Shown here piece by piece: positions 5,624-51,361 of a stretch of 64,000 bases of DNA (positions are counted from its first letter, which is position 1; each line of letters begins with the position of its first letter). The notes under the pieces are model-generated. The model had not been told where the DNA came from, did no database searches, and saw only the letters and a program-made list of their open reading frames with translations. The stretch covers positions 1 to 64,000 of the forward strand of contig CAXHJY010000413.1 of the NCBI GenBank assembly GCA_964016885.1. The letters run 5' to 3'. The stretch comes from Eledone cirrhosa. Lineage: Eukaryota. The translations under genes and the position numbers were made by a program.

Positions 5624-8600
5624 GTATGGTTGATTGTAGACTTGTTCTATATGTGACGGTATTTTAACGATAGTTATAGCTCTGATTCATCTGAATTATT
5701 GAGCCCTCTGCCGCTCATATCGAATTTCGTTTTTCGTGAACTCGTGCGCCGATTTTTCGATACTCGATCTTTCTAATATATTTAGCTCTGGACATAGCTA
5801 TCCACCAGTTAATTTTATTGCTCATTTTTTGTCGATTCTATTGAGTGATGAATAGCTTTTGTTTTATTTTAACATGTCTATTGAGCACTCTAATTCGATA
5901 TGTGTATTTCCACATTCACTCGAATTGTTTTCGCGGATATAGGGGTCATCTCCCTTGTCTAATGCCATGTGCGTTTTTCACCGCTAGTTGACTCCTTTGC
6001 CGCCAGGAAAAAACTCGTTGACAACGTAAACTCCGTTCCACTTATTCTAGTAGGCTTTTATATTTATATGTGAGCTGATAGAGTACTGTCTAAGGATTTA
6101 CAGAAACCCATGAAGCTAGATTTAACACCTTTCTAGTGGGTCCGGGTATGATTTTACATTCATTTAAATTATTGACGTATTGTTTTATTGATATTTTTTA
6201 TTTGTTTGGCCCGAATCTTCCTTTATCGATTTTAAATCGTATGGTTGATTGTAGACTTGTTCTATATGTGACGGTATTTTAACGATAGTTATAGCTCTGA
6301 TTCATCTGAATTATTGAGCCCTCTGCCGCTCATATCGAATTTCGTTTTTCGTGAACTCGTGCGCCGATTTTTCGATACTCGATCTTTCTAATATATTTAG
6401 CTCTGGACATAGCTATCCACCAGTTAATTTTATTGCTCATTTTTTGTCGATTCTATTGAGTGATGAATAGCTTTTGTTTTATTTTAACATGTCTATTGAG
6501 CACTCTAATTCGATATGTGTATTTCCACATTCACTCGAATTGTTTTCGCGGATATAGGGGTCATCTCCCTTGTCTAATGCCATGTGCGTTTTTCACCGCT
6601 AGTTGACTCCTTTGCCGCCAGGAAAAAACTCGTTGACAACGTAAACTCCGTTCCACTTATTCTAGTAGGCTTTTATATTTATATGTGAGCTGATAGAGTA
6701 CTGTCTAAGGATTTACAGAAACCCATGAAGCTAGATTTAACACCTTTCTAGTGGGTCCGGGTATGATTTTACATTCATTTAAATTATTGACGTATTGTTT
6801 TATTGATATTTTTTATTTGTTTGGCCCGAATCTTCCTTTATCGATTTTAAATCGTATGGTTGATTGTAGACTTGTTCTATATGTGACGGTATTTTAACGA
6901 TAGTTATAGCTCTGATTCATCTGAATTATTGAGCCCTCTGCCGCTCATATCGAATTTCGTTTTTCGTGAACTCGTGCGCCGATTTTTCGATACTCGATCT
7001 TTCTAATATATTTAGCTCTGGACATAGCTATCCACCAGTTAATTTTATTGCTCATTTTTTGTCGATTCTATTGAGTGATGAATAGCTTTTGTTTTATTTT
7101 AACATGTCTATTGAGCACTCTAATTCGATATGTGTATTTCCACATTCACTCGAATTGTTTTCGCGGATATAGGGGTCATCTCCCTTGTCTAATGCCATGT
7201 GCGTTTTTCACCGCTAGTTGACTCCTTTGCCGCCAGGAAAAAACTCGTTGACAACGTAAACTCCGTTCCACTTATTCTAGTAGGCTTTTATATTTATATG
7301 TGAGCTGATAGAGTACTGTCTAAGGATTTACAGAAACCCATGAAGCTAGATTTAACACCTTTCTAGTGGGTCCGGGTATGATTTTACATTCATTTAAATT
7401 ATTGACGTATTGTTTTATTGATATTTTTTATTTGTTTGGCCCGAATCTTCCTTTATCGATTTTAAATCGTATGGTTGATTGTAGACTTGTTCTATATGTG
7501 ACGGTATTTTAACGATAGTTATAGCTCTGATTCATCTGAATTATTGAGCCCTCTGCCGCTCATATCGAATTTCGTTTTTCGTGAACTCGTGCGCCGATTT
7601 TTCGATACTCGATCTTTCTAATATATTTAGCTCTGGACATAGCTATCCACCAGTTAATTTTATTGCTCATTTTTTGTCGATTCTATTGAGTGATGAATAG
7701 CTTTTGTTTTATTTTAACATGTCTATTGAGCACTCTAATTCGATATGTGTATTTCCACATTCACTCGAATTGTTTTCGCGGATATAGGGGTCATCTCCCT
7801 TGTCTAATGCCATGTGCGTTTTTCACCGCTAGTTGACTCCTTTGCCGCCAGGAAAAAACTCGTTGACAACGTAAACTCCGTTCCACTTATTCTAGTAGGC
7901 TTTTATATTTATATGTGAGCTGATAGAGTACTGTCTAAGGATTTACAGAAACCCATGAAGCTAGATTTAACACCTTTCTAGTGGGTCCGGGTATGATTTT
8001 ACATTCATTTAAATTATTGACGTATTGTTTTATTGATATTTTTTATTTGTTTGGCCCGAATCTTCCTTTATCGATTTTAAATCGTATGGTTGATTGTAGA
8101 CTTGTTCTATATGTGACGGTATTTTAACGATAGTTATAGCTCTGATTCATCTGAATTATTGAGCCCTCTGCCGCTCATATCGAATTTCGTTTTTCGTGAA
8201 CTCGTGCGCCGATTTTTCGATACTCGATCTTTCTAATATATTTAGCTCTGGACATAGCTATCCACCAGTTAATTTTATTGCTCATTTTTTGTCGATTCTA
8301 TTGAGTGATGAATAGCTTTTGTTTTATTTTAACATGTCTATTGAGCACTCTAATTCGATATGTGTATTTCCACATTCACTCGAATTGTTTTCGCGGATAT
8401 AGGGGTCATCTCCCTTGTCTAATGCCATGTGCGTTTTTCACCGCTAGTTGACTCCTTTGCCGCCAGGAAAAAACTCGTTGACAACGTAAACTCCGTTCCA
8501 CTTATTCTAGTAGGCTTTTATATTTATATGTGAGCTGATAGAGTACTGTCTAAGGATTTACAGAAACCCATGAAGCTAGATTTAACACCTTTCTAGTGGG

Positions 8601-11600
8601 TCCGGGTATGATTTTACATTCATTTAAATTATTGACGTATTGTTTTATTGATATTTTTTATTTGTTTGGCCCGAATCTTCCTTTATCGATTTTAAATCGT
8701 ATGGTTGATTGTAGACTTGTTCTATATGTGACGGTATTTTAACGATAGTTATAGCTCTGATTCATCTGAATTATTGAGCCCTCTGCCGCTCATATCGAAT
8801 TTCGTTTTTCGTGAACTCGTGCGCCGATTTTTCGATACTCGATCTTTCTAATATATTTAGCTCTGGACATAGCTATCCACCAGTTAATTTTATTGCTCAT
8901 TTTTTGTCGATTCTATTGAGTGATGAATAGCTTTTGTTTTATTTTAACATGTCTATTGAGCACTCTAATTCGATATGTGTATTTCCACATTCACTCGAAT
9001 TGTTTTCGCGGATATAGGGGTCATCTCCCTTGTCTAATGCCATGTGCGTTTTTCACCGCTAGTTGACTCCTTTGCCGCCAGGAAAAAACTCGTTGACAAC
9101 GTAAACTCCGTTCCACTTATTCTAGTAGGCTTTTATATTTATATGTGAGCTGATAGAGTACTGTCTAAGGATTTACAGAAACCCATGAAGCTAGATTTAA
9201 CACCTTTCTAGTGGGTCCGGGTATGATTTTACATTCATTTAAATTATTGACGTATTGTTTTATTGATATTTTTTATTTGTTTGGCCCGAATCTTCCTTTA
9301 TCGATTTTAAATCGTATGGTTGATTGTAGACTTGTTCTATATGTGACGGTATTTTAACGATAGTTATAGCTCTGATTCATCTGAATTATTGAGCCCTCTG
9401 CCGCTCATATCGAATTTCGTTTTTCGTGAACTCGTGCGCCGATTTTTCGATACTCGATCTTTCTAATATATTTAGCTCTGGACATAGCTATCCACCAGTT
9501 AATTTTATTGCTCATTTTTTGTCGATTCTATTGAGTGATGAATAGCTTTTGTTTTATTTTAACATGTCTATTGAGCACTCTAATTCGATATGTGTATTTC
9601 CACATTCACTCGAATTGTTTTCGCGGATATAGGGGTCATCTCCCTTGTCTAATGCCATGTGCGTTTTTCACCGCTAGTTGACTCCTTTGCCGCCAGGAAA
9701 AAACTCGTTGACAACGTAAACTCCGTTCCACTTATTCTAGTAGGCTTTTATATTTATATGTGAGCTGATAGAGTACTGTCTAAGGATTTACAGAAACCCA
9801 TGAAGCTAGATTTAACACCTTTCTAGTGGGTCCGGGTATGATTTTACATTCATTTAAATTATTGACGTATTGTTTTATTGATATTTTTTATTTGTTTGGC
9901 CCGAATCTTCCTTTATCGATTTTAAATCGTATGGTTGATTGTAGACTTGTTCTATATGTGACGGTATTTTAACGATAGTTATAGCTCTGATTCATCTGAA
10001 TTATTGAGCCCTCTGCCGCTCATATCGAATTTCGTTTTTCGTGAACTCGTGCGCCGATTTTTCGATACTCGATCTTTCTAATATATTTAGCTCTGGACAT
10101 AGCTATCCACCAGTTAATTTTATTGCTCATTTTTTGTCGATTCTATTGAGTGATGAATAGCTTTTGTTTTATTTTAACATGTCTATTGAGCACTCTAATT
10201 CGATATGTGTATTTCCACATTCACTCGAATTGTTTTCGCGGATATAGGGGTCATCTCCCTTGTCTAATGCCATGTGCGTTTTTCACCGCTAGTTGACTCC
10301 TTTGCCGCCAGGAAAAAACTCGTTGACAACGTAAACTCCGTTCCACTTATTCTAGTAGGCTTTTATATTTATATGTGAGCTGATAGAGTACTGTCTAAGG
10401 ATTTACAGAAACCCATGAAGCTAGATTTAACACCTTTCTAGTGGGTCCGGGTATGATTTTACATTCATTTAAATTATTGACGTATTGTTTTATTGATATT
10501 TTTTATTTGTTTGGCCCGAATCTTCCTTTATCGATTTTAAATCGTATGGTTGATTGTAGACTTGTTCTATATGTGACGGTATTTTAACGATAGTTATAGC
10601 TCTGATTCATCTGAATTATTGAGCCCTCTGCCGCTCATATCGAATTTCGTTTTTCGTGAACTCGTGCGCCGATTTTTCGATACTCGATCTTTCTAATATA
10701 TTTAGCTCTGGACATAGCTATCCACCAGTTAATTTTATTGCTCATTTTTTGTCGATTCTATTGAGTGATGAATAGCTTTTGGTTTATTTTAACATGTCTA
10801 TTGAGCACTCTAATTCGATATGTGTATTTCCACATTCACTCGAATTGTTTTCGCGGATATAGGGGTCATCTCCCTTGTCTAATGCCATGTGCGTTTTTCA
10901 CCGCTAGTTGACTCCTTTGCCGCCAGGAAAAAACTCGTTGACAACGTAAACTCCGTTCCACTTATTCTAGTAGGCTTTTATATTTATATGTGAGCTGATA
11001 GAGTACTGTCTAAGGATTTACAGAAACCCATGAAGCTAGATTTAACACCTTTCTAGTGGGTCCGGGTATGATTTTACATTCATTTAAATTATTGACGTAT
11101 TGTTTTATTGATATTTTTTATTTGTTTGGCCCGAATCTTCCTTTATCGATTTTAAATCGTTTGGTTGATTGTAGACTTGTTCTATATGTGACGGTATTTT
11201 AACGATAGTTATAGCTCTGATTCATCTGAATTATTGAGCCCTCTGCCGCTCATATCGAATTTCGTTTTTCGTGAACTCGTGCGCCGATTTTTCGATACTC
11301 GATCTTTCTAATATATTTAGCTCTGGACATAGCTATCCACCAGTTAATTTTATTGCTCATTTTTTGTCGATTCTATTGAGTGATGAATAGCTTTTGTTTT
11401 ATTTTAACATGTCTATTGAGCACTCTAATTCGATATGTGTATTTCCACATTCACTCGAATTGTTTTCGCGGATATAGGGGTCATCTCCCTTGTCTAATGC
11501 CATGTGCGTTTTTCACCGCTAGTTGACTCCTTTGCCGCCAGGAAAAAACTCGTTGACAACGTAAACTCCGTTCCACTTATTCTAGTAGGCTTTTATATTT

Positions 11601-13149
11601 ATATGTGAGCTGATAGAGTACTGTCTAAGGATTTACAGAAACCCATGAAGCTAGATTTAACACCTTTCTAGTGGGTCCGGGTATGATTTTACATTCATTT
11701 AAATTATTGACGTATTGTTTTATTGATATTTTTTATTTGTTTGGCCCGAATCTTCCTTTATCGATTTTAAATCGTATGGTTGATTGTAGACTTGTTCTAT
11801 ATGTGACGGTATTTTAACGATAGTTATAGCTCTGATTCATCTGAATTATTGAGCCCTCTGCCGCTCATATCGAATTTCGTTTTTCGTGAACTCGTGCGCC
11901 GATTTTTCGATACTCGATCTTTCTAATATATTTAGCTCTGGACATAGCTATCCACCAGTTAATTTTATTGCTCATTTTTTGTCGATTCTATTGAGTGATG
12001 AATAGCTTTTGTTTTATTTTAACATGTCTATTGAGCACTCTAATTCGATATGTGTATTTCCACATTCACTCGAATTGTTTTCGCGGATATAGGGGTCATC
12101 TCCCTTGTCTAATGCCATGTGCGTTTTTCACCGCTAGTTGACTCCTTTGCCGCCAGGAAAAAACTCGTTGACAACGTAAACTCCGTTCCACTTATTCTAG
12201 TAGGCTTTTATATTTATATGTGAGCTGATAGAGTACTGTCTAAGGATTTACAGAAACCCATGAAGCTAGATTTAACACCTTTCTAGTGGGTCCGGGTATG
12301 ATTTTACATTCATTTAAATTATTGACGTATTGTTTTATTGATATTTTTTATTTGTTTGGCCCGAATCTTCCTTTATCGATTTTAAATCGTATGGTTGATT
12401 GTAGACTTGTTCTATATGTGACGGTATTTTAACGATAGTTATAGCTCTGATTCATCTGAATTATTGAGCCCTCTGCCGCTCATATCGAATTTCGTTTTTC
12501 GTGAACTCGTGCGCCGATTTTTCGATACTCGATCTTTCTAATATATTTAGCTCTGGACATAGCTATCCACCAGTTAATTTTATTGCTCATTTTTTGTCGA
12601 TTCTATTGAGTGATGAATAGCTTTTGTTTTATTTTAACATGTCTATTGAGCACTCTAATTCGATATGTGTATTTCCACATTCACTCGAATTGTTTTCGCG
12701 GATATAGGGGTCATCTCCCTTGTCTAATGCCATGTGCGTTTTTCACCGCTAGTTGACTCCTTTGCCGCCAGGAAAAAACTCGTTGACAACGTAAACTCCG
12801 TTCCACTTATTCTAGTAGGCTTTTATATTTATATGTGAGCTGATAGAGTATTGTCTAAGGATTTACAGAAACCCATGAAGCTAGATTTAACACCTTTCTA
12901 GTGGGTCCGGGTATGATTTTACATTCATTTAAATTATTGACGTATTGTTTTATTGATATTTTTTATTTGTTTGGCCCGAATCTTCCTTTATCGATTTTAA
13001 ATCGTATGGTTGATTGTAGACTTGTTCTATATGTGACGGTATTTTAACGATAGTTATAGCTCTGATTCATCTGAATTATTGAGCCCTCTGCCGCTCATAT
13101 CGAATTTCGTTTTTCGTGAACTCGTGCGCCGATTTTTCGATACTCGATC

Positions 13150-13160
<11 letters not shown>
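5624..13160 (+). repeat. Tandem array of a 615 bp non-coding unit: 12 full copies plus a ~157 bp partial
   Basis: GTATGGTTGATTGTAGAC recurs at 5624, 6239, 6854 ... 13004. I saw only three substitutions (10782, 11161, 12851). Both ends adjoin TA microsatellite. Strand is inferred. Confidence 0.97.
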
Positions 13161-13218
<58 letters not shown>

Positions 13219-13532
13219 TTGAAAAAAATGAAAACGAAATTTCATTTCTCACTCTTAGTATGGCACTTACTTAAATGTAAGTATGTATGTATACGTACAT
13301 ACATATACGTATACAGACGTACAGTAGCATGCATATATATACATATATATATATATACATATATATACATATATACATACAGGTACACATACATATATGC
13401 ACGCATCAGTTTAGCGGACGTTTATTACAACGCCGCTTTGTTCGTTTGTTTGTCAACAAACCGAACAGCCTGAATTTATGCCATACGGTGTTAAGGCAAC
13501 CACGTCACCTTTTTGTTCAACACTGACACAGG

Positions 13533-13577
13533 AACGATGTACTAGTTTCAAGCTTGTTAGCTATCATCAGCACCGTT
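13533..13577 (-). ncRNA. Type I hammerhead ribozyme, array copy 1
   Basis: Reverse complement: AACGGTG-CTGATGA-T-AGCT-AACA-AGCT-T-GAAA-CTAG-TA-CATCGTT (7 bp stem I, GUA site). Confidence 0.88.
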
Positions 13578-14024
13578 TACCCATCTGCCAGATAGTTGAA
13601 CGTTCGAAAGTATATACTTTCCTTATGAAAATTAACGGCTGAGCAGCCTAATTTGCATATTGAGTGAGTTAAATCGGTCAGGCATACCGAAAACGATAAG
13701 TTGAAAAAAATGAAAACGAAATTTCATTTCTCACTCTTAGTATGGCACTTACTTAAATGTAAGTATGTATGTACACGTACATACATATATGTATACAGAC
13801 GTACAGTAGCATGCATATATATACGCATATATATATATACATATATATACATATATATACACATATGCATACAGGTACACATACATATATGCACGCATCA
13901 GTTTAGCGGACGTTTATTACAACGCCGCTTTGTTCGTTTGTTTGTTAACAAACCGAACAGCCTGAATTTATGCCATACGGTGTTAAGGCAACCACGTCAC
14001 CTTTTTGTTTAACACTGACACAGG

Positions 14025-14069
14025 AACGATGTACTAGTTTCAAGCTTGTTAGCTATCATCAGCACCGTT
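14025..14069 (-). ncRNA. Type I hammerhead ribozyme, array copy 2
   Basis: Identical to copy 1. Confidence 0.88.
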
Positions 14070-14502
14070 TACCCATCTGCCAGATAGTCGAACGTTCGAA
14101 AGTATATACTTTCCTTATGAAAATTAACGGCTGAGCAGCCTAATTTGCATATTGAGTGAGTTAAATCGGTCAGGCATACCGAAAACGATAAGTTGAAAAA
14201 AATGAAAACGAAATTTCATTTCTCACTCTTAGTATGGCACTTACTTAAATGTAAGTATGTATGCATACGTACATACACACATGTATACAGACGTACAGTA
14301 GCATGCATATATATATACATATATATACATACATACACATACATACATACAGGTACACATACATATATGCACGCATCAGTTTAGCGGACGTTTATTACAA
14401 CGCCGCTTTGATCGTTTGTTTGTCAACAAACCGAACAGCCTGAATTTATGCCATACGGTGTTAAGGCAACCACGTCACCTTTTTGTTCAACACTGACACA
14501 GG

Positions 14503-14547
14503 AACGATGTACTAGTTTCAAGCTTGTTAGCTATCATCAGCACCGTT
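14503..14547 (-). ncRNA. Type I hammerhead ribozyme, array copy 3
   Basis: Identical to copy 1. Confidence 0.88.
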
Positions 14548-14984
14548 TACCCATCTGCCAGATAGTCGAACGTTCGAAAGTATATACTTTCCTTATGAAA
14601 ATTAACGGCTGAGCAGCCTAATTTGCATATTGAGTGAGTTAAATCGGTCAGGCATACCGAAAACGATAAGTTGAAAAAAATGAAAACGAAATTTCATTTC
14701 TCACTCTTAGTATGGCACTTACTTAAATGTAAGTATGTATGTATACGTACATACATATACGTATACAGACGTACAGTAGCATGCATATATATACATATAT
14801 ATATATATACATATATATACATATATACATACAGGTACACATACATATATGCACGCATCAGTTTAGCGGACGTTTATTACAACGCCGCTTTGTTCGTTTG
14901 TTTGTCAACAAACCGAACAGCCTGAATTTATGCCATACGGTGTTAAGGCAACCACGTCACCTTTTTGTTCAACACTGACACAGG

Positions 14985-15029
14985 AACGATGTACTAGTTT
15001 CAAGCTTGTTAGCTATCATCAGCACCGTT
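14985..15029 (-). ncRNA. Type I hammerhead ribozyme, array copy 4
   Basis: Identical to copy 1. Confidence 0.88.
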
Positions 15030-15259
15030 TACCCATCTGCCAGATAGTTGAACGTTCGAAAGTATATACTTTCCTTATGAAAATTAACGGCTGAGCAGCC
15101 TAATTTGCATATTGAGTGAGTTAAATCGGTCAGGCATACCGAAAACGATAAATTGAAAAAAATGAAAACGAAATTTCATTTCTCACTCTTAGTATGGCAC
15201 TTACTTAAATGTAAGTATGTATGTACACGTACATACATATATGTATACAGACTTTCAAT

Positions 15260-18200
15260 TCAGGATTTTGGCACCATGGCCCATTCGAGAAGAGAATTAC
15301 TGTTTGCGGAGACATATCCGGGTGTGGGTGGTTTGTCCGGGATCACTTGGAGGAATTTGTCCAAAGACTTCTTGAATTTTGTGTGGTGAGTTTCTGTTTT
15401 GACGTGTCCTGGTGTGATGTTGAAGCGAGCAGGGCCAATTGAGGTGAAATAATTGTGCCGTATTGTTGTTATGAGTTGCGATTTAGATTTTTGTATGGGA
15501 CGGATAGCACGGGGCCCAAGCCTTGGGTGTATTTTGAAGGCGATGCCAACATCATTTGGGCAGTGATGATGGAACATTTTCCACATCATGCAGATAATAT
15601 AACGCTCACGGCGACGTTGGAGTGAGTAAAGTTTCAGCTTTTCTAGTCGACCCCAGTAGTCAAGGTCTGACATGCCATCTATCTTTTTCGTGATTGCCCT
15701 TTGAGGAGCTTCAAGTTTCATGATACTTTGTTTCGTGTGGGGAGATCACAGTGGACAACAGTATTCAAGGTGTGGTCGGGCAAAAGTAGAGAAGAGAAGG
15801 ATAATGGTGTGGGAATCTCTCGACTGGAAGGTTCTGAGGATCGAGGAACACATTCTGCGGGCCATGTCAACTTTGCTGCTTATATGCGTGGCCCAGCTTA
15901 TGTTGCTGTCCACGGTTACTCCCAAGTCTCTGATGTTGTTAGATGCCACGAGAGTTTCCCCGGAGGGAAGGGAGTACGGGAGTTTCAGAGCATCCTCTTT
16001 TCCAAAGTGGATCAGTTCGAATTTGTCTTCGTTCAGTAACATGTTGTTCTTTTCCGCCCATTGGGTAACAGCCAGTAGGTCTGACTGAAGGCTTATCCGG
16101 TCATCCACGCCATTGATGACCTTTTGGAGCTTGGAATCATCAGCGAAAATTTTAATGTTTCTGTGTTTGATGATGTCAGTGATGTCATTAATATAGATGA
16201 TGAAGAGAAGTGGGCCCAACACAGTGCCTTGTGGGACCCCACTACTGACTTTGGCTGGGCTGGATTTGACTCCTTCAACTACAACATGTTGGGTTCTGTT
16301 TGACAGGAAGCTCTTGATCCACTGCAGCAGCTTTCCACTGACACCAATATTGGACAGTTTTCTCAGTAGAATGTTGTGATCAACCCTGTCAAAGGCCTTG
16401 CTGAAATAAAGGTAGATAACATCAGTGTTGGAACCCTCTCCCAAGGCTCTCAAAATGTCATCAAAGTGATGCAGTAGCTGCGTCAGGCAATCCCTTCCAT
16501 TACGGAATCCATGCTGGTTGGAGTTCAGCATATTGTTACTCTCAAGGAAGTGGGTCATTCGCGATCTCACCACTCTCTCAAATACCTTAATGATATGAGA
16601 GGTGAGTGAGATTGGACGGTAATTCACGGCAAGGGATTTGTTTCCTTTTTTGAAAACTGGGACAACAGACTGGGATAGAAGGTTTTCTGGCACATATCCA
16701 GCATCCAGTGAGTTCCGCCACAGATTGGCAAGAGGAGATGCAAGTTGGTGTTGACACGCCTTCAAGACACAAGCAGGGAACCTATCGGGACCTACTGCTG
16801 AATTATGCTTGATTTCCTTTATTGCCGCCAAGACATCAGGGGCGCCAAACGTTATGTCCGATAAGGTGTAATGGGGAGTAAGATCGCCGATACAGCCCAG
16901 ATCGGCCATATCAGGATTGCTGAAAACAGAGCAGTATTGTTTCTGCAGTATCTCACCCATGGTTTTAGCATTGTCTTGAAGAGTGCCATTTTCATCAATT
17001 AGAGGGCCAACAGTAGAGCCAGTGATTTTGTGTTTTTTTGCAAATGAAAAGAACACTTTGGGATTGAGTTTGATCTTCTCAATGGCCCAGGCCTCTTCAG
17101 CTCTTCTCTGATTGTTGATGAGAGACATCATGTTGTTTTGGAGGTTATGTTTTTTAATCTCTAGTGATGAAATGGCAGTCAAGTTGATGTGTTGCTGCTG
17201 ACAGTATTTCAGCTTGTTGATTTTTTGTTCGTTCTCTTAATTTTCCTGATGAGCGTTTTTCTATTTCTAGGGATTCTGCTCTTAGATTTGTTTATAGTTC
17301 TTAATGGGGTGTGTTTAGCACATATGTTTGTAACAGTGTCCACAAATGTCTGCCAGGACTTTTTGATGTTAGTGGGTGTATGAGTGTGCGTGAAGGACCA
17401 GTCGACATGTGCAAGATCATGACTGATCGCTTCCCAGTTTGCATTGTGGAAATCCATAGCGTCAAACGGATGGACAGGAGAGATGACTTTGGGTTTGTAT
17501 ATTGGACGGTGGAATCTCAGATCACAGAGAACCATGTCATGATCAGAGAGTAGAGTTTTCTCCACTGCAATATTGTGGATATTGTCAGTGTGATTGCTGA
17601 AAATTAAGTCTAGGACGTTTTTGTGGCACCTCGTTGGTTCGAGCACCAGTTGGGATAGGAAGAAATCATCCATGAAGTCAAGAAGCGATTCCACTGCTTC
17701 CCTGTCAGAGGTTGAGGCAGAAGAACCTGGTGGCAGGGTGTTTGTGGACCAGTCAACTCCGGGGAGGTTGAAGTCCCCCATCATTAAGATGTTGTCAGGG
17801 TGACACTCTTGGATGAAACACTTTATGCTGTTGAGGCATTCCTTGAAGCATGGTACAGGCGTTTGGGGTGGCCTATAGAGCCCAACTACTATTAGGTTGT
17901 TGGTTTGACTGAATACAGTGACTGCTTCGCAGTATCCATTAGTGAATATGTTCATAGCCTCTGTTGAGAAAGAATTATGGACATAAATGGCAGTCCCGCC
18001 CTTTCTTCTGCCAGCGCGATCAGCACGGATGGCTTTGAAATTTTTCACTTTCACCTCGGCTTCCAAGTGGAGGTTACTGAGATGGGTTTCAGTGAGGACG
18101 AAGAAAGGGATGTGGTTTGGATGGACATCAATCCAGTCCTCCAGGAATTTGATCTTCCATTTTTGAGTATTGGTGGAAGGGCTGATGCCTTGGGCGTTAA

Positions 18201-18279
18201 GCAAAAATGTAGAGGCGAGAGTGGATGGTTTTAATTGTTTTGGTGTGTTGTTAATTTGTTTGTTTGTTAATGGCAGCAA
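15260..18279 (-). pseudogene. LINE ORF2 (APE endonuclease + reverse transcriptase) in three frameshifted pieces
   Basis: APE: LTETHL, GGTAIYV, YRPP, GDFNLP, LDLIFS, SDHD. RT: NYRPISLTS, FSKAFDRVDH, GVPQGTVLGPLLF, IFADDSKL. CR1-type C-terminus: LYSLQRRRER. Confidence 0.9.
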
Positions 18280-18299
18280 TGGGAGTTTGTGCAGTGGGG

Positions 18300-19200
18300 T
18301 GATAGTGGAGGGTGGTGCTGGGTGATAGCTCGAATGTTTTTTTCCAGTTCTTTTGCCAGATTCATTATGGCTAAAAAAGAGGAAGAAGTTTCCTGTTTAG
18401 AAGACTGTTGGTGACTGTGGTAGTGGTTATTTTTATGTAGGTTATGGTTTTTGTTTTTGCTTTTATTTTTAATTTTATTAATTTTATTTTAATTTGTCCG
18501 ACGGGTCCCCGGGAGATGGGTAAAGGGACAATCCCGGTCTAAACACAATCTGTCTCGCAGGGAAAAGCGGCAGATTTGTGGATTCCTTGTTTGAGTTATT
18601 GGTGGTTGTGTTGGTGTTAAATTAGAGTATGTATTATGGTGGTGGCTGTTTGTGGGGATAGACCGTTTTGTCCTAGGTAAATGGGTGAATTTGCAGCCAC
18701 TATCCGTACATATTCTATAGCGTAGAGAGTAGCGGCAAATGATGGGGTTTCAAGTGGGTGTGTATGTGGGTGTGTGTGTTGTGAGAGGTGTAGATGATGG
18801 TTTGAGTAGGATTTGACGACCTTTGTGGACTGTGGGAGGGAGAGTTCTTGTACTGGTATTAGAAGGTAAATTCCTTGAGATAGCAGTAGGAAAAGATGTG
18901 GTAGTAGTAGTAGTAGTAGTAGTAGGCAGAGAAGATGTTGGCAGTGGTGATGATTGGACTGCTGGGCCAGAGAAAGGATGTGGTGTTTCCTGCTGTGAGA
19001 CAGAGGCTACTGGGAGGTCAATAGTTTCATTTAGTAGATCGGCCATTGTTGATGAATCAAGGAGTGGTTCATACTGTTGTTGTTGTTGTCGTTGTTGTTG
19101 TTGCTGTTGTTGATGTTGTTGTTGCTGTTGTTGTTGTAGCTGTTGTTGTTGTTGCCGTTGTAGCTGCTGTTGTTGTTGTTGCTGCTGCTGGACAGCATCC
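18300..19200 (-). pseudogene. LINE ORF1 remnant with two CX8CX4CX3H fingers and a polyQ/polyT region
   Basis: Manual translation gives ICRYSLRYRICTDSGCKFTHL (about 18680-18742) and ICRFSLRDRLCLDRDCPFTHL (about 18512-18575). Confidence 0.65.
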
Positions 19201-20138: not shown

Positions 20139-20196
20139 GATATTTTAGTAAGTAAGTTAATTTTATAATTTTCTTATTTTACGTCTCTTATATTAT

Positions 20197-25990
<5,794 letters not shown>

Positions 25991-35492: not shown

Positions 35493-35688
35493 ACGAAGAA
35501 GTGTGGTAAGTAACCAGGTGGACCATAACGCACCAGAGTACTCGATACTTTGGGTAGTAGAGTGGGTAATAAGAAAAGAGTCAGGACCCTGACGGCAGAG
35601 CTCATGCCGTTTCGGCGGCTATTTCTGAGTCCAGAAATAGCCGTCTAAACGGCTTGAGCTCTGCCGTCGGAGTCCTGACTATTTTTGC

Positions 35689-48535: not shown

Positions 48536-48707
48536 TTAAATGAATATCATAGATCGTTCACATTTCAGGGCCTATGTTAAACATGAACCATTTTTAAGTA
48601 ATTTTCTTTTAAATAGGAATAACGATTACATAAGAGTAATTATAGAATGGATAATGAAATTTATTACGTTTGAGATACTAAGAAAACTAATAAAACAAAT
48701 TACTGAC

Positions 48708-51079
48708 CTGATCAGGACAGTCATAGTTGGTACAGTTGATTTTCCCGTCTGTACACCGGCATATATTGCATTTATCTTCAGACATAAATATTTGGTTGGC
48801 TTCGAAAACTTTTCCTTTAAGTTCACATTTCGATTTAGGACAGTACATTTTAGTACATGCTACTTGACCAAACTGTCCACATGTACATGTATTGCAGTCT
48901 TTTTTAAACGATTCTCCGACAGAATAGGTCTGTCCGTTGAATACGCATGGTTTGGGGCATTTTTTCTGTTCACATTGGACTCTTCCATCCTCATGGCACT
49001 GACATTTATTGCAATCATTGTAGAATATAGAACCGAGATCATAACGTTTACCATAGTATGTACAAGAACATTTCATTTTAGTACAGCTAACTACACCATT
49101 TTGTTGGCAGGTACAAGTGTTACAGCCCTGAATAAATGTAGCACCAATGGGGTAAGATCTTCCATTTTCAAAACATTGACATGGCTTGTTAGAGCACTGC
49201 ACTGTACCACTAGATAAACATTCACATTGATTACAATCATCGTAAAATCTTTGACTAGTTTGATAAACCTGTCCTTTATGTGTACATTGACACTGCTTAT
49301 TTGTACATTGGACTTGTCCATTTTGTTGACAGGTACAAGTGTTACAGTCCTGATTAAATGAAGCCCCGATATTATAGATCTGGTTGTTGTATGTACATTT
49401 ACAGACGTTATTGGTACATTGAACATCTCCATTTGACTGACAAACACATTGGTTACATTCTTCATTAAATCTTTGACTAATTTGATAAACCTGTCCTTTA
49501 TATGTACATTGACAACGGTTATTTGAACATTGGACTTGTCCATTTTGTTGACAAGTGCAGGTGTTACAGTCATCACTGAATTGTTGTCCGAAATTATAAA
49601 CTCTATTTTTGTAGGTACAGGTACATGGGTTATTTGTACACTGTATACGACCATCTATTTGACATGTGCATGTATTGCAGTCCTTGCTAAATGTAGCACC
49701 AATGGGGTAAGATCTTCCATTTTCAAAACATTTACAAATCTTGTTAGAGCACTGCACTATACCACTAGATAAACATTCACATTGGTTACAATCATCGTTA
49801 AATCTTTGATTAATTTGATAAACCTGTCCTTTATATGTACATTGACAACGGTTATTTGAACATTGGACCTGTCCACTTTGTTGACAAGTGCATGTATTAC
49901 AGTCCTTGCTAAATGTAGCACCAATGGGGTAAGATCTTCCCTTTTCAAAACATTTACAAGGTTTGTTAGAACATTGCACAGTACCACTAGATAAACATTC
50001 ACATTGGTTACAATCATCGTTAAATCTTTGACGAATTTGATAAACCTGTCCTTTATATGTACATTGACATGGGTTATTTGTACATTGGACTTGTCCATTT
50101 TGTTGACAGGTACAGGTGTTACAGTCCTGATTAAATGAAGCCCCGATATTATAGATCTGGTTGTTGTATGTACATTTACAGGCGTTACTTGTACATTGAA
50201 CATCTCCATTTGACTGACAAACACATTGGTTACATTCTTCATTAAATCTTTGATTAATTTGATAAACCTGTCCTTTATATGTACATTGACACTGCTTATT
50301 TGTACATTGGACCTGTCCATTTTGTTGACAGATACAGGTGTTGCAGTCCTTGCTAAATGTAGCACCAATGGGGTAAGATCTTCCATTTTCAAAACATTTA
50401 CAAACCTTGTTAGAACACTGCACTGTACCACTAGATAAACATTCACATTGGTTACATTCTTCATTAAATCTTTGTCGAATTTGATAAACCTGTCCTTTAT
50501 ATGTACACTGACACGTATTCTTTGTACAGTCTACTTGACCATTACCTCGACAATAGCAAGTATTGCAATCTTCTTCAATTTTCTCTCCTACATTAAATAT
50601 CTTTCCTCTGTAGTAACATTTACACATTTTCTGAGTACATTTAACTGTTCCATCACTTAAACATTCACATGTATTGCATTCATCAGAGAATGTTTGTCCG
50701 GTTTGATAGCGAATGTTCTTGTGATAACATTCACATCCTTGATTGCTACACTGCACTGTTCCGCTAATTTGACAAGTACAAGGCTTACATCCATCTTTGA
50801 AGGTCTGTCCATGGTTGTAGACATTACCTTTATATTGACACTGGCACACATTATTTGTACATTCCATTTGACCACTGGCTTTACATACACATTTATTACA
50901 TGATTGTTGAGATGTCTGTCCTACAGCGTAACGTTTACCTTGATACCAACATGTACGTCGCTGTCCATAGCCACAACTTTTGCTTGTACACAGTGCTTGG
51001 CCCGTTTCAGTACACACACATGTATTGCAGTCGATTTTAAATGCTCCGTTATATTGTTTACCATTATGGGTACATTCGT
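48708..51079 (-). CDS. Exon 2 of a secreted Cys-rich protein: 21 tandem six-Cys half-VWC/pacifastin-like modules
   Basis: Open 2372 bp between acceptor TTTTTACAG|AC (phase 1) and donor CAG|GTCAGT. 37 aa repeat C-x16-CN-x-C-x-C-x3-G-x3-C(T/S)-x3-C. Confidence 0.9.
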
Positions 51080-51361
51080 CTGTAAAAAATCATATGATCA
51101 ATAATTATATTTATATCTAACACTGTAATATCAATATGGTATATATTCTATTGTACATAAGATATTAAGCTATTGATTTTAATTTCCTGTATGTAGGGAG
51201 ATACTTGCATTTAATAATACCATGTATATCTATATTCTATTATACGTAAGAAATTAAGATATCCACGAAAGATGTGAATTTAGTGTGTCTAGCGGAATTT
51301 TAAAACTTAATGATACACACACACATATACATATATATATACATACATACATTCATACATA

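Follow-up and report, generated by a model that had tools for sequence, protein, structure and literature searches.

Metazoan non-LTR retrozymes were defined in 2020 by Cervera and de la Pena in coral, mussel and axolotl, and the main text of that study (PMC7229834) proposes that they are moved by the reverse transcriptase (RT) of Penelope-like elements (PLEs). In axolotl retrozyme hammerheads that have either of the two weak features discussed below, cleavage is poor in the monomer and efficient in the dimer (PMC7229834), minimal PLE hammerheads are described in the accessible text of PMC4209133 as having low activity, and in the main text of 10.64898/2026.07.22.740005 one of nine predicted Xenopus dimers cleaved in vitro and eight did not. 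The marks of PLE insertion, as given in the accessible text of PMC8557442, are 5' truncation, an inverted 5'-truncated copy, a tail of 30-40 bp often on one end and a bias for (TA)n; both this source and the accessible text of PMC11167929 describe the tail as PLE specific. In vitro, two internal RT start sites delimit the tail, and both strands are cut; the PAc protein is predicted to be a dimer, and its insertion does not need hammerhead cleavage, unprocessed RNA being the dominant substrate (PMC11167929). Until now, the case for a particular mover of animal retrozymes, and for or against circles as their template, rested on co-occurrence and pLTR homology. Here, we describe a tandem array, located in a 64,000-nucleotide stretch of DNA (the window), whose unit is very probably a non-LTR retrozyme, that is, a non-autonomous PLE copied into (TA)n by a PLE RT-endonuclease acting in trans.

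The array, its unit and its flanks

The array comprises 4.2 copies of a unit of ~482 bp (~480 bp in round figures), with 96% matches (Table 1). An earlier note on this DNA had described four identical minus-strand type I hammerheads spaced 492, 478 and 482 nt apart, a unit with no coding capacity and an array ending in a TA tract, and all of this is borne out. The 45-nt motifs are identical, with CUGAUGA cores starting at 13570, 14062, 14540 and 15022; the longest ATG frames (54 aa in sense, 100 aa in antisense) both cross the microsatellite and are of low complexity; and the 3' end meets the TA tract at 13213. An ORF with RT and GIY-YIG, the mark of an autonomous PLE, is absent from the unit. 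A candidate relic ORF start (MKFRF) at the long end was dropped, as its reading frame differs between subfamilies. Tandem non-coding units with one hammerhead each, at least two in a row, are the hallmark of non-LTR retrozymes.

Monomer positions are counted from the predicted hammerhead cut. On this scale, the tail separates a long end at position 336 (13214), the one used in the window array, from a short end at position 278 (13272), which sits in the loop of a small hairpin; the window locus has the long arm only. A palindromic TATA-like box (13606-13621) and an octamer (13651-13658) lie upstream of each hammerhead, the octamer being present in 361 of 372 sampled copies. A possible parallel between these putative promoter boxes and the snRNA-type promoter of newt satellite 2 was set aside, our literature search having found no support for it.

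Table 1. Features of the array and its immediate surroundings, in window coordinates
Feature	Position	Strand	Remarks
Array of ~480-bp non-coding unit	13214..15252	minus (RNA sense)	5' truncation at monomer position 232; 3' end at 336
Type I hammerhead 1	13533..13577	minus	predicted cut between 13540 and 13539
Hammerhead 2, identical to 1	14025..14069	minus	A17 at 14032
Hammerhead 3, identical to 1	14503..14547	minus	A17 at 14510
Hammerhead 4, identical to 1	14985..15029	minus	A17 at 14992
58-bp tail between two fixed insertion ends	13214..13271	minus	putative RT start sites
(TA)n target tract at array 3' end	13156..13213		also borders 3' end of opposite-strand 615-bp array
Compound TA/CA microsatellite inside unit	13280..13405	minus	one per unit, differs between units, folds as long hairpin
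Candidate internal promoter	13606..13658	minus	octamer ATGCAAAT and palindromic TATA-like box; putative function
587-bp repeat of 14666-15252	13214..13800	minus	period 1452 bp, three units; contains locus-private markers
Flanking APE-RT LINE	15253..18396	minus	array 5' end joins LINE 3' UTR, 1 bp overlap

The units follow one another in the order A-B-C-A', the outer 587-bp repeats differing by a single mismatch and sharing a microsatellite and flank variant seen only at this locus. This order could be explained by a template of three units that was copied 1.4 times and was either a trimer circle or the transcript of a period-3 array. It may also have arisen by duplication in place followed by deletion, an alternative that stays because an old array elsewhere in the genome holds an exact internal duplication of eight units (see below). 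A search of the assembly found no source locus for the trimer, and the markers of unit C occur once.

The flanking LINE, presumably CR1-like by a motif, belongs to a young family whose copies are 98% identical and end in TA tracts; the window copy has a frame break. About 65 nt of its 3' UTR are missing, a stretch present ahead of the TA tract in 14 of 14 other copies of the LINE. This clipped UTR suggests that the array entered the TA tract behind the LINE and that target DNA was lost at insertion or later. Elsewhere in the window, a short old fragment of the unit's long end lies inside a TA tract at about 25255-25299 (+), and 20189-25989 is a 5.8-kb TA-rich tract with large inverted repeats.

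The opposite-strand array (5624-13161, plus strand) comprises 12.25 copies, 99.9% identical, of a 615-bp unit that is dispersed in the genome. In the window and in six of six other regions, one end lies at the fixed unit position 158 and runs into (TA)n; the other end varies. A conserved hammerhead-like stretch in this unit (8-nt first core, GAAA, long helix III, GUC, one clear pair in helix I) matched neither a descriptor nor Rfam; we regard the array as a likely further PLE passenger whose ribozyme is atypical or decayed. Another hammerhead family (type I, long helix II, UGCGCA loop) is found at 2833 (-), 3647 (+) and 29364 (+), the first two being inverted relative to each other. A very common element, with 3' ends at 35613 (-) and 62108 (-), and also at L133, L056 and L128, terminates at a short or a long end, the two separated by about 80 nt. 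Its longer copies also have a hammerhead-like fold with a U3-A8-type core, and it is probably a PLE pLTR. Finally, an 800-aa frame of 111-bp repeats at 48687-51089 (-), with Pacifastin_I and VWC matches, is probably a host exon.

Structure and conservation of the hammerhead

Each hammerhead consists of a 7-bp helix I with one G·U pair, CUGAUGA, a 4-bp helix II, GAAA, a CUAG loop and the cleavage triplet GUA, so that the elements of the type I core (CUGANGA, GAAA and UH, with helices I-III) are all present. The cut had been placed 3' of position 13540 on the minus strand, which is where A17 of GUA falls. The length of stem II was also given correctly as 4 bp, but the U10.1·U11.1 mismatch on which this helix is stacked had been missed. 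Similarly, the CUAG of the proposed stem III is indeed a palindrome, but it forms a loop, and helix III is reduced to the single A-U pair that closes it. In Rfam, which the earlier note had suggested as a check, the motif has no match at the gathering score. At E<=10, the only hammerhead model to appear was Hammerhead_HH9 (18.5 bits against a cut-off of 52, E 1.4, in three of the four copies), and the microRNA matches at this threshold were microsatellite noise.

The monomer is predicted to fold at -163.9 kcal/mol (z -8), with a large contribution from the microsatellite hairpin. Folding of the circular monomer gives helix II a probability of at least 0.91 and helix I one of 0.18-0.8, and in a 51-mer the active fold lies 7.5 kcal/mol above the best fold. 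These models predict a weak monomer hammerhead; the ribozyme is likely slow and in need of a dimer or of protein help.

The contrast between an invariant ribozyme and a variable microsatellite, drawn in the earlier note, holds insofar as the four motifs are identical, but invariance within the window means little because, outside the microsatellite, the three full units show only 1-4 differences. Across 188 copies from 68 regions, variants common to at least three regions occurred in 0 of 33 hammerhead columns (core, helix II, loop 3 and the 3' strand of helix I, 17 of them fixed by the pattern that found most loci) and in 70 of 215 flank columns (Fisher 1.2e-5). When only the 16 pattern-free hammerhead columns are counted, none has a variant in at least three loci (~0.002, by hand arithmetic). 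Shared changes are confined to N7, loop 2 and four columns of the helix I 5' strand, where G·U is replaced by A-U (3 loci) or, on both sides, by U·G (2 loci). The first pair of helix II differs in 207 mostly older copies, some of which retain a G·U pair while many break it. As for the microsatellite, 98 of its 105 variants in the sample are private to one locus.

Insertion anatomy, template and rival explanations

The hammerhead core pattern has 12,362 matches in the 3.0-Gb assembly and its reversed control has 0; the hammerhead is therefore not a product of chance. A separate motif of the unit, the tail hairpin, has 12,338 matches. Copies range in identity to the window unit from 100% down to about 73%, the oldest being units of ~430 bp, and the family shows the dispersed high copy number without LTR framing that is typical of retrozymes. 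Regions were sampled at the best DNA matches (13), at the first 100 core matches on C1 (54) and incidentally (3), and the sample is biased toward hammerhead-bearing loci.

Among the 123 3' ends scored in the 68 sampled regions and the window, 53 are short and 70 long; 86 fall at the exact positions (39 at 278 and 47 at 335-336), and TA-rich DNA adjoins 105. The two 3' ends, 278 and 336 nt after the cut and thus 58 nt apart, continue into (TA)n. Genome-wide, the ends that run into TA number at least 2,461 for the short form and 1,882 for the long one, against 0 for the reversed controls; both counts are lower bounds, and the long-end pattern misses the window's own variant. The 5' ends are spread across the unit (149 arm starts), and arms reach 7.4 kb. 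Opposite-strand candidate pairs number 38, of which 27 are contiguous, head to head, and 26 of these combine one short with one long arm (P 1.3e-7 under independence), the exception being a 73-bp fragment; the 11 pairs left out for gaps of more than 40 nt comprise nine short+long and two long+long. Mixed head-to-head pairs with another hammerhead element were set aside because one of them (L120) breaks the rule that two others (L119 and L135) fit, and because the other element is very common. Two fixed 3' ends, a tail on one arm only, 5' truncation, an inverted 5'-truncated partner arm and a microsatellite target together make up the signature of a non-autonomous PLE.

The genome is rich in PLEs, with 10,597 GIY-YIG candidates, 150 of which were scored. 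Two ORF-bearing PLE inverted pairs (L079 and L085) served as a positive control for the end signature in the same genome: in each of them a long arm is paired with a short one, the tails measuring about 62 and 54 nt, respectively, and members of both families match RVT_1 and GIY-YIG. The 58-nt tail of the unit matches those of these local PLEs in kind and size, not in sequence. U·U hammerheads occur near the ORFs of PLE families with RT and GIY-YIG matches; in one of the two control families, a U·U hammerhead with a palindromic loop 3 lies about 380 nt after the stop. The PLE at L074 has the CX4CX2C linker, a Neptune/Nematis mark according to the accessible text of PMC8557442. A small tandem with 310-bp spacing, a U·U hammerhead, a CGCG loop and an inverted copy (L063:4794-5618) appears to be a further retrozyme-like family.

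The earlier note had recommended a search for copies attached to a PLE ORF. It returned none among 30 GIY-YIG regions, drawn from the 10,597 candidates, and about 100 unit regions, 32 of older copies included in the search for a framed ORF; the same 30 and about 100 regions yielded no pLTR homologue of the unit. Same-strand pairs of variant hammerheads 3.4-4.5 kb apart, considered as pLTR-ORF-pLTR, turned out to be old arrays or duplicates, and the alternative upstream sequence at L046 belongs to a different PLE in the opposite orientation. Since no autonomous PLE sharing the sequence of the unit was found, the PLE partner is deduced from anatomy. This anatomy supports PLE dependence well: there are thousands of dispersed insertions, two fixed 3' ends, variable 5' ends and inverted second arms that use the other end, and no ORF. 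The proposal of a retrozyme-type element mobilized by a Penelope-like RT thus finds support in the two-site ends, the short and long inverted arms and the ORF-bearing PLE control.

Other origins account for parts of these data. It is hardly probable that a rare autonomous PLE has the unit as its pLTR, most copies being truncated ends of this element: pLTR-like parts are present (hammerhead, promoter-like boxes, tail) and rare full-length copies could escape about 100 sampled regions among thousands, but head-to-tail units close on themselves without an ORF, both in arrays that reach 24 units and in subfamilies as distant as about 73% identity, and a search for an alternative upstream context gave eight matches that were all junction variants or chance, with no new family. 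In sampled arrays of 15-16 and of 24 hammerheads, no ORF separates the units, which speaks against a unit that occurs only as the pLTR of an autonomous Penelope element, the case that the earlier note had named as fatal to its proposal. An origin as ordinary satellite DNA, with an old solo pLTR amplified through unequal crossover or circular DNA and the hammerhead left as a relic, is very improbable. An old 24-unit array in which several haplotypes are mixed (L214+L184; C3, 72.26 Mb) does contain an exact internal 8-unit duplication and short periodic runs, indicating that DNA-level amplification also happens, and local amplification is discussed in the main text of 10.64898/2026.07.22.740005; such processes, however, cannot account for thousands of loci with two fixed 3' ends that run into TA, nor for short and long inverted arms. 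More improbable still is SINE-like mobilization by a LINE such as the adjacent APE-RT element. The window array adjoins the LINE 3' UTR in the same orientation, and the LINE likewise ends in TA, but the 14 other LINE copies have the full UTR without the unit, the two share no common 3' end, and the two-site tail is described as PLE specific in the accessible literature.

Under PLE mobilization, the minus strand would be transcribed from the internal promoter, and the transcript may, as the earlier note proposed, self-process to ~480-nt monomers or circles. A PLE protein, probably a dimer as predicted for PAc, would cut both strands of the TA tract, and reverse transcription would begin internally in the RNA, with position 336 as the start for one strand and position 278 for the other, on an uncut multimer or a re-ligated circle that is continuous across the cut. 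Indeed, since both start sites lie mid-monomer, a cut linear monomer gives a cDNA of at most 336 nt, and any insertion that spans the hammerhead needs a template continuous across the cut. Genome-wide, 11 5' ends lie exactly at the cut, as do 11 at a control site 31 nt upstream, and on inspection the former are nine inversion junctions and two mutated hammerheads; cut linear RNA therefore leaves no trace among the insertions. The template is likely an uncut multimer or a ligated circle. We lean slightly towards circles as the usual template because one array run holds 14 units with 0-2 differences, because at one locus (L117) private variants are fixed in all 7-8 copies and both arms, and because the ribozyme is constrained; the runs and the L117 variants fit repeated copying of one monomer. 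Against circles stand the rarity of such fixation (rare variants are fixed across the whole array in only 3 of 23 multi-copy insertions), the insertion of PAc without a need for cleavage, and a negative cut-site join test, in which the phase analysis of the 24-unit array revealed no minimum there and hetero-multimers joined at the cut were rejected. Counts of discordance between array arms were left unused, being mostly alignment noise at junctions. With the same PLE dependence, the template could instead always be a linear uncut multimer, the hammerhead being slow or trimming ends and circles being a by-product or absent, a reading to which we give somewhat less than an even chance. The preference of PAc for unprocessed RNA (PMC11167929), the predicted weakness of the monomer fold and the existence of heterogeneous arrays speak for it, and the absent 5'-end pile-up at the cut fits it equally; yet hammerhead constraint and the monomer-to-array homogenization at L117 would need an extra step, and the 149 arm starts, noisy in the microsatellite, show no clear pile-up near the putative promoter.

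Coming back to circular templates, the window array could be the print of a Penelope RT that went 1.4 times round a trimeric circular RNA, the short and long arms reflecting a dimeric PLE protein that primes two fixed internal sites on such templates. We hold this reading only tentatively and consider it rather unlikely. If true, the circRNA-to-DNA step proposed for animal retrozymes would have direct evidence, as would the way in which PLE tandems and tails form.

Comparison with known systems

The retrozyme class has already been published, and the unit adds a new family to it. In common with the metazoan retrozymes described in the main text of PMC7229834, it forms tandem non-coding repeats with one type I hammerhead each, in thousands of copies, with a GC content below 50% and a highly self-paired predicted monomer. 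Two axolotl ribozymes of the same source need a dimer and are reminiscent of the one described here: HHR_Amex1 has a 1-bp helix III with a palindromic tetraloop, and HHR_Amex2 has a U·U at the base of helix II. The present ribozyme combines both weak features. The unit is also longer than the 170-400 nt tested in that study and has an internal microsatellite hairpin; circles were demonstrated for those retrozymes and are putative for the present unit.

Tandem hammerhead repeats are likewise regarded as non-autonomous PLEs, with family lengths of 51-972 bp, in 10.64898/2026.07.22.740005. The evidence in its main text consists of co-occurrence and pLTR homology, mostly in vertebrates, whereas ours is insertion anatomy, with no pLTR homologue found in the regions sampled. 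The word "tail" is absent from the main texts of this study and of PMC7229834, and "inversion" from that of 10.64898/2026.07.22.740005; inverted arms go unmentioned in the main text of PMC7229834. In the accessible passages, a literature search found no link between tails and retrozymes, and the literature on hammerhead ribozymes in the presumed host group yielded no such family.

As far as the accessible texts of PMC11167929 and PMC8557442 go, EN+ PLEs such as PAc of Anolis share with the unit 5' truncation, tandem and inverted arrangement, a one-ended tail, AT-rich or (TA)n targets and a hammerhead upstream of the RT start sites. The unit differs from them in having no ORF, a tail of 58 nt compared with the 30-40 bp cited, and up to 24 units per array. 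The PLE-specific two-site tail, present at thousands of loci, ties the retrozyme class to the PLE machinery by mechanism, and the unit RNA, 480 nt long, free of ORFs and with its start sites mapped, offers the in vitro PLE assay already available a compact substrate, in linear versus circular form. Multicopy head-to-tail PLE passengers are also known from Chlamydomonas, namely MRC1 and other non-autonomous Chlamys elements; in the accessible texts of PMC8557442 and 10.1101/2022.06.16.496473, the 3' ends of these passengers are similar to those of their autonomous partners, and hammerheads are missing from most Chlamys elements.
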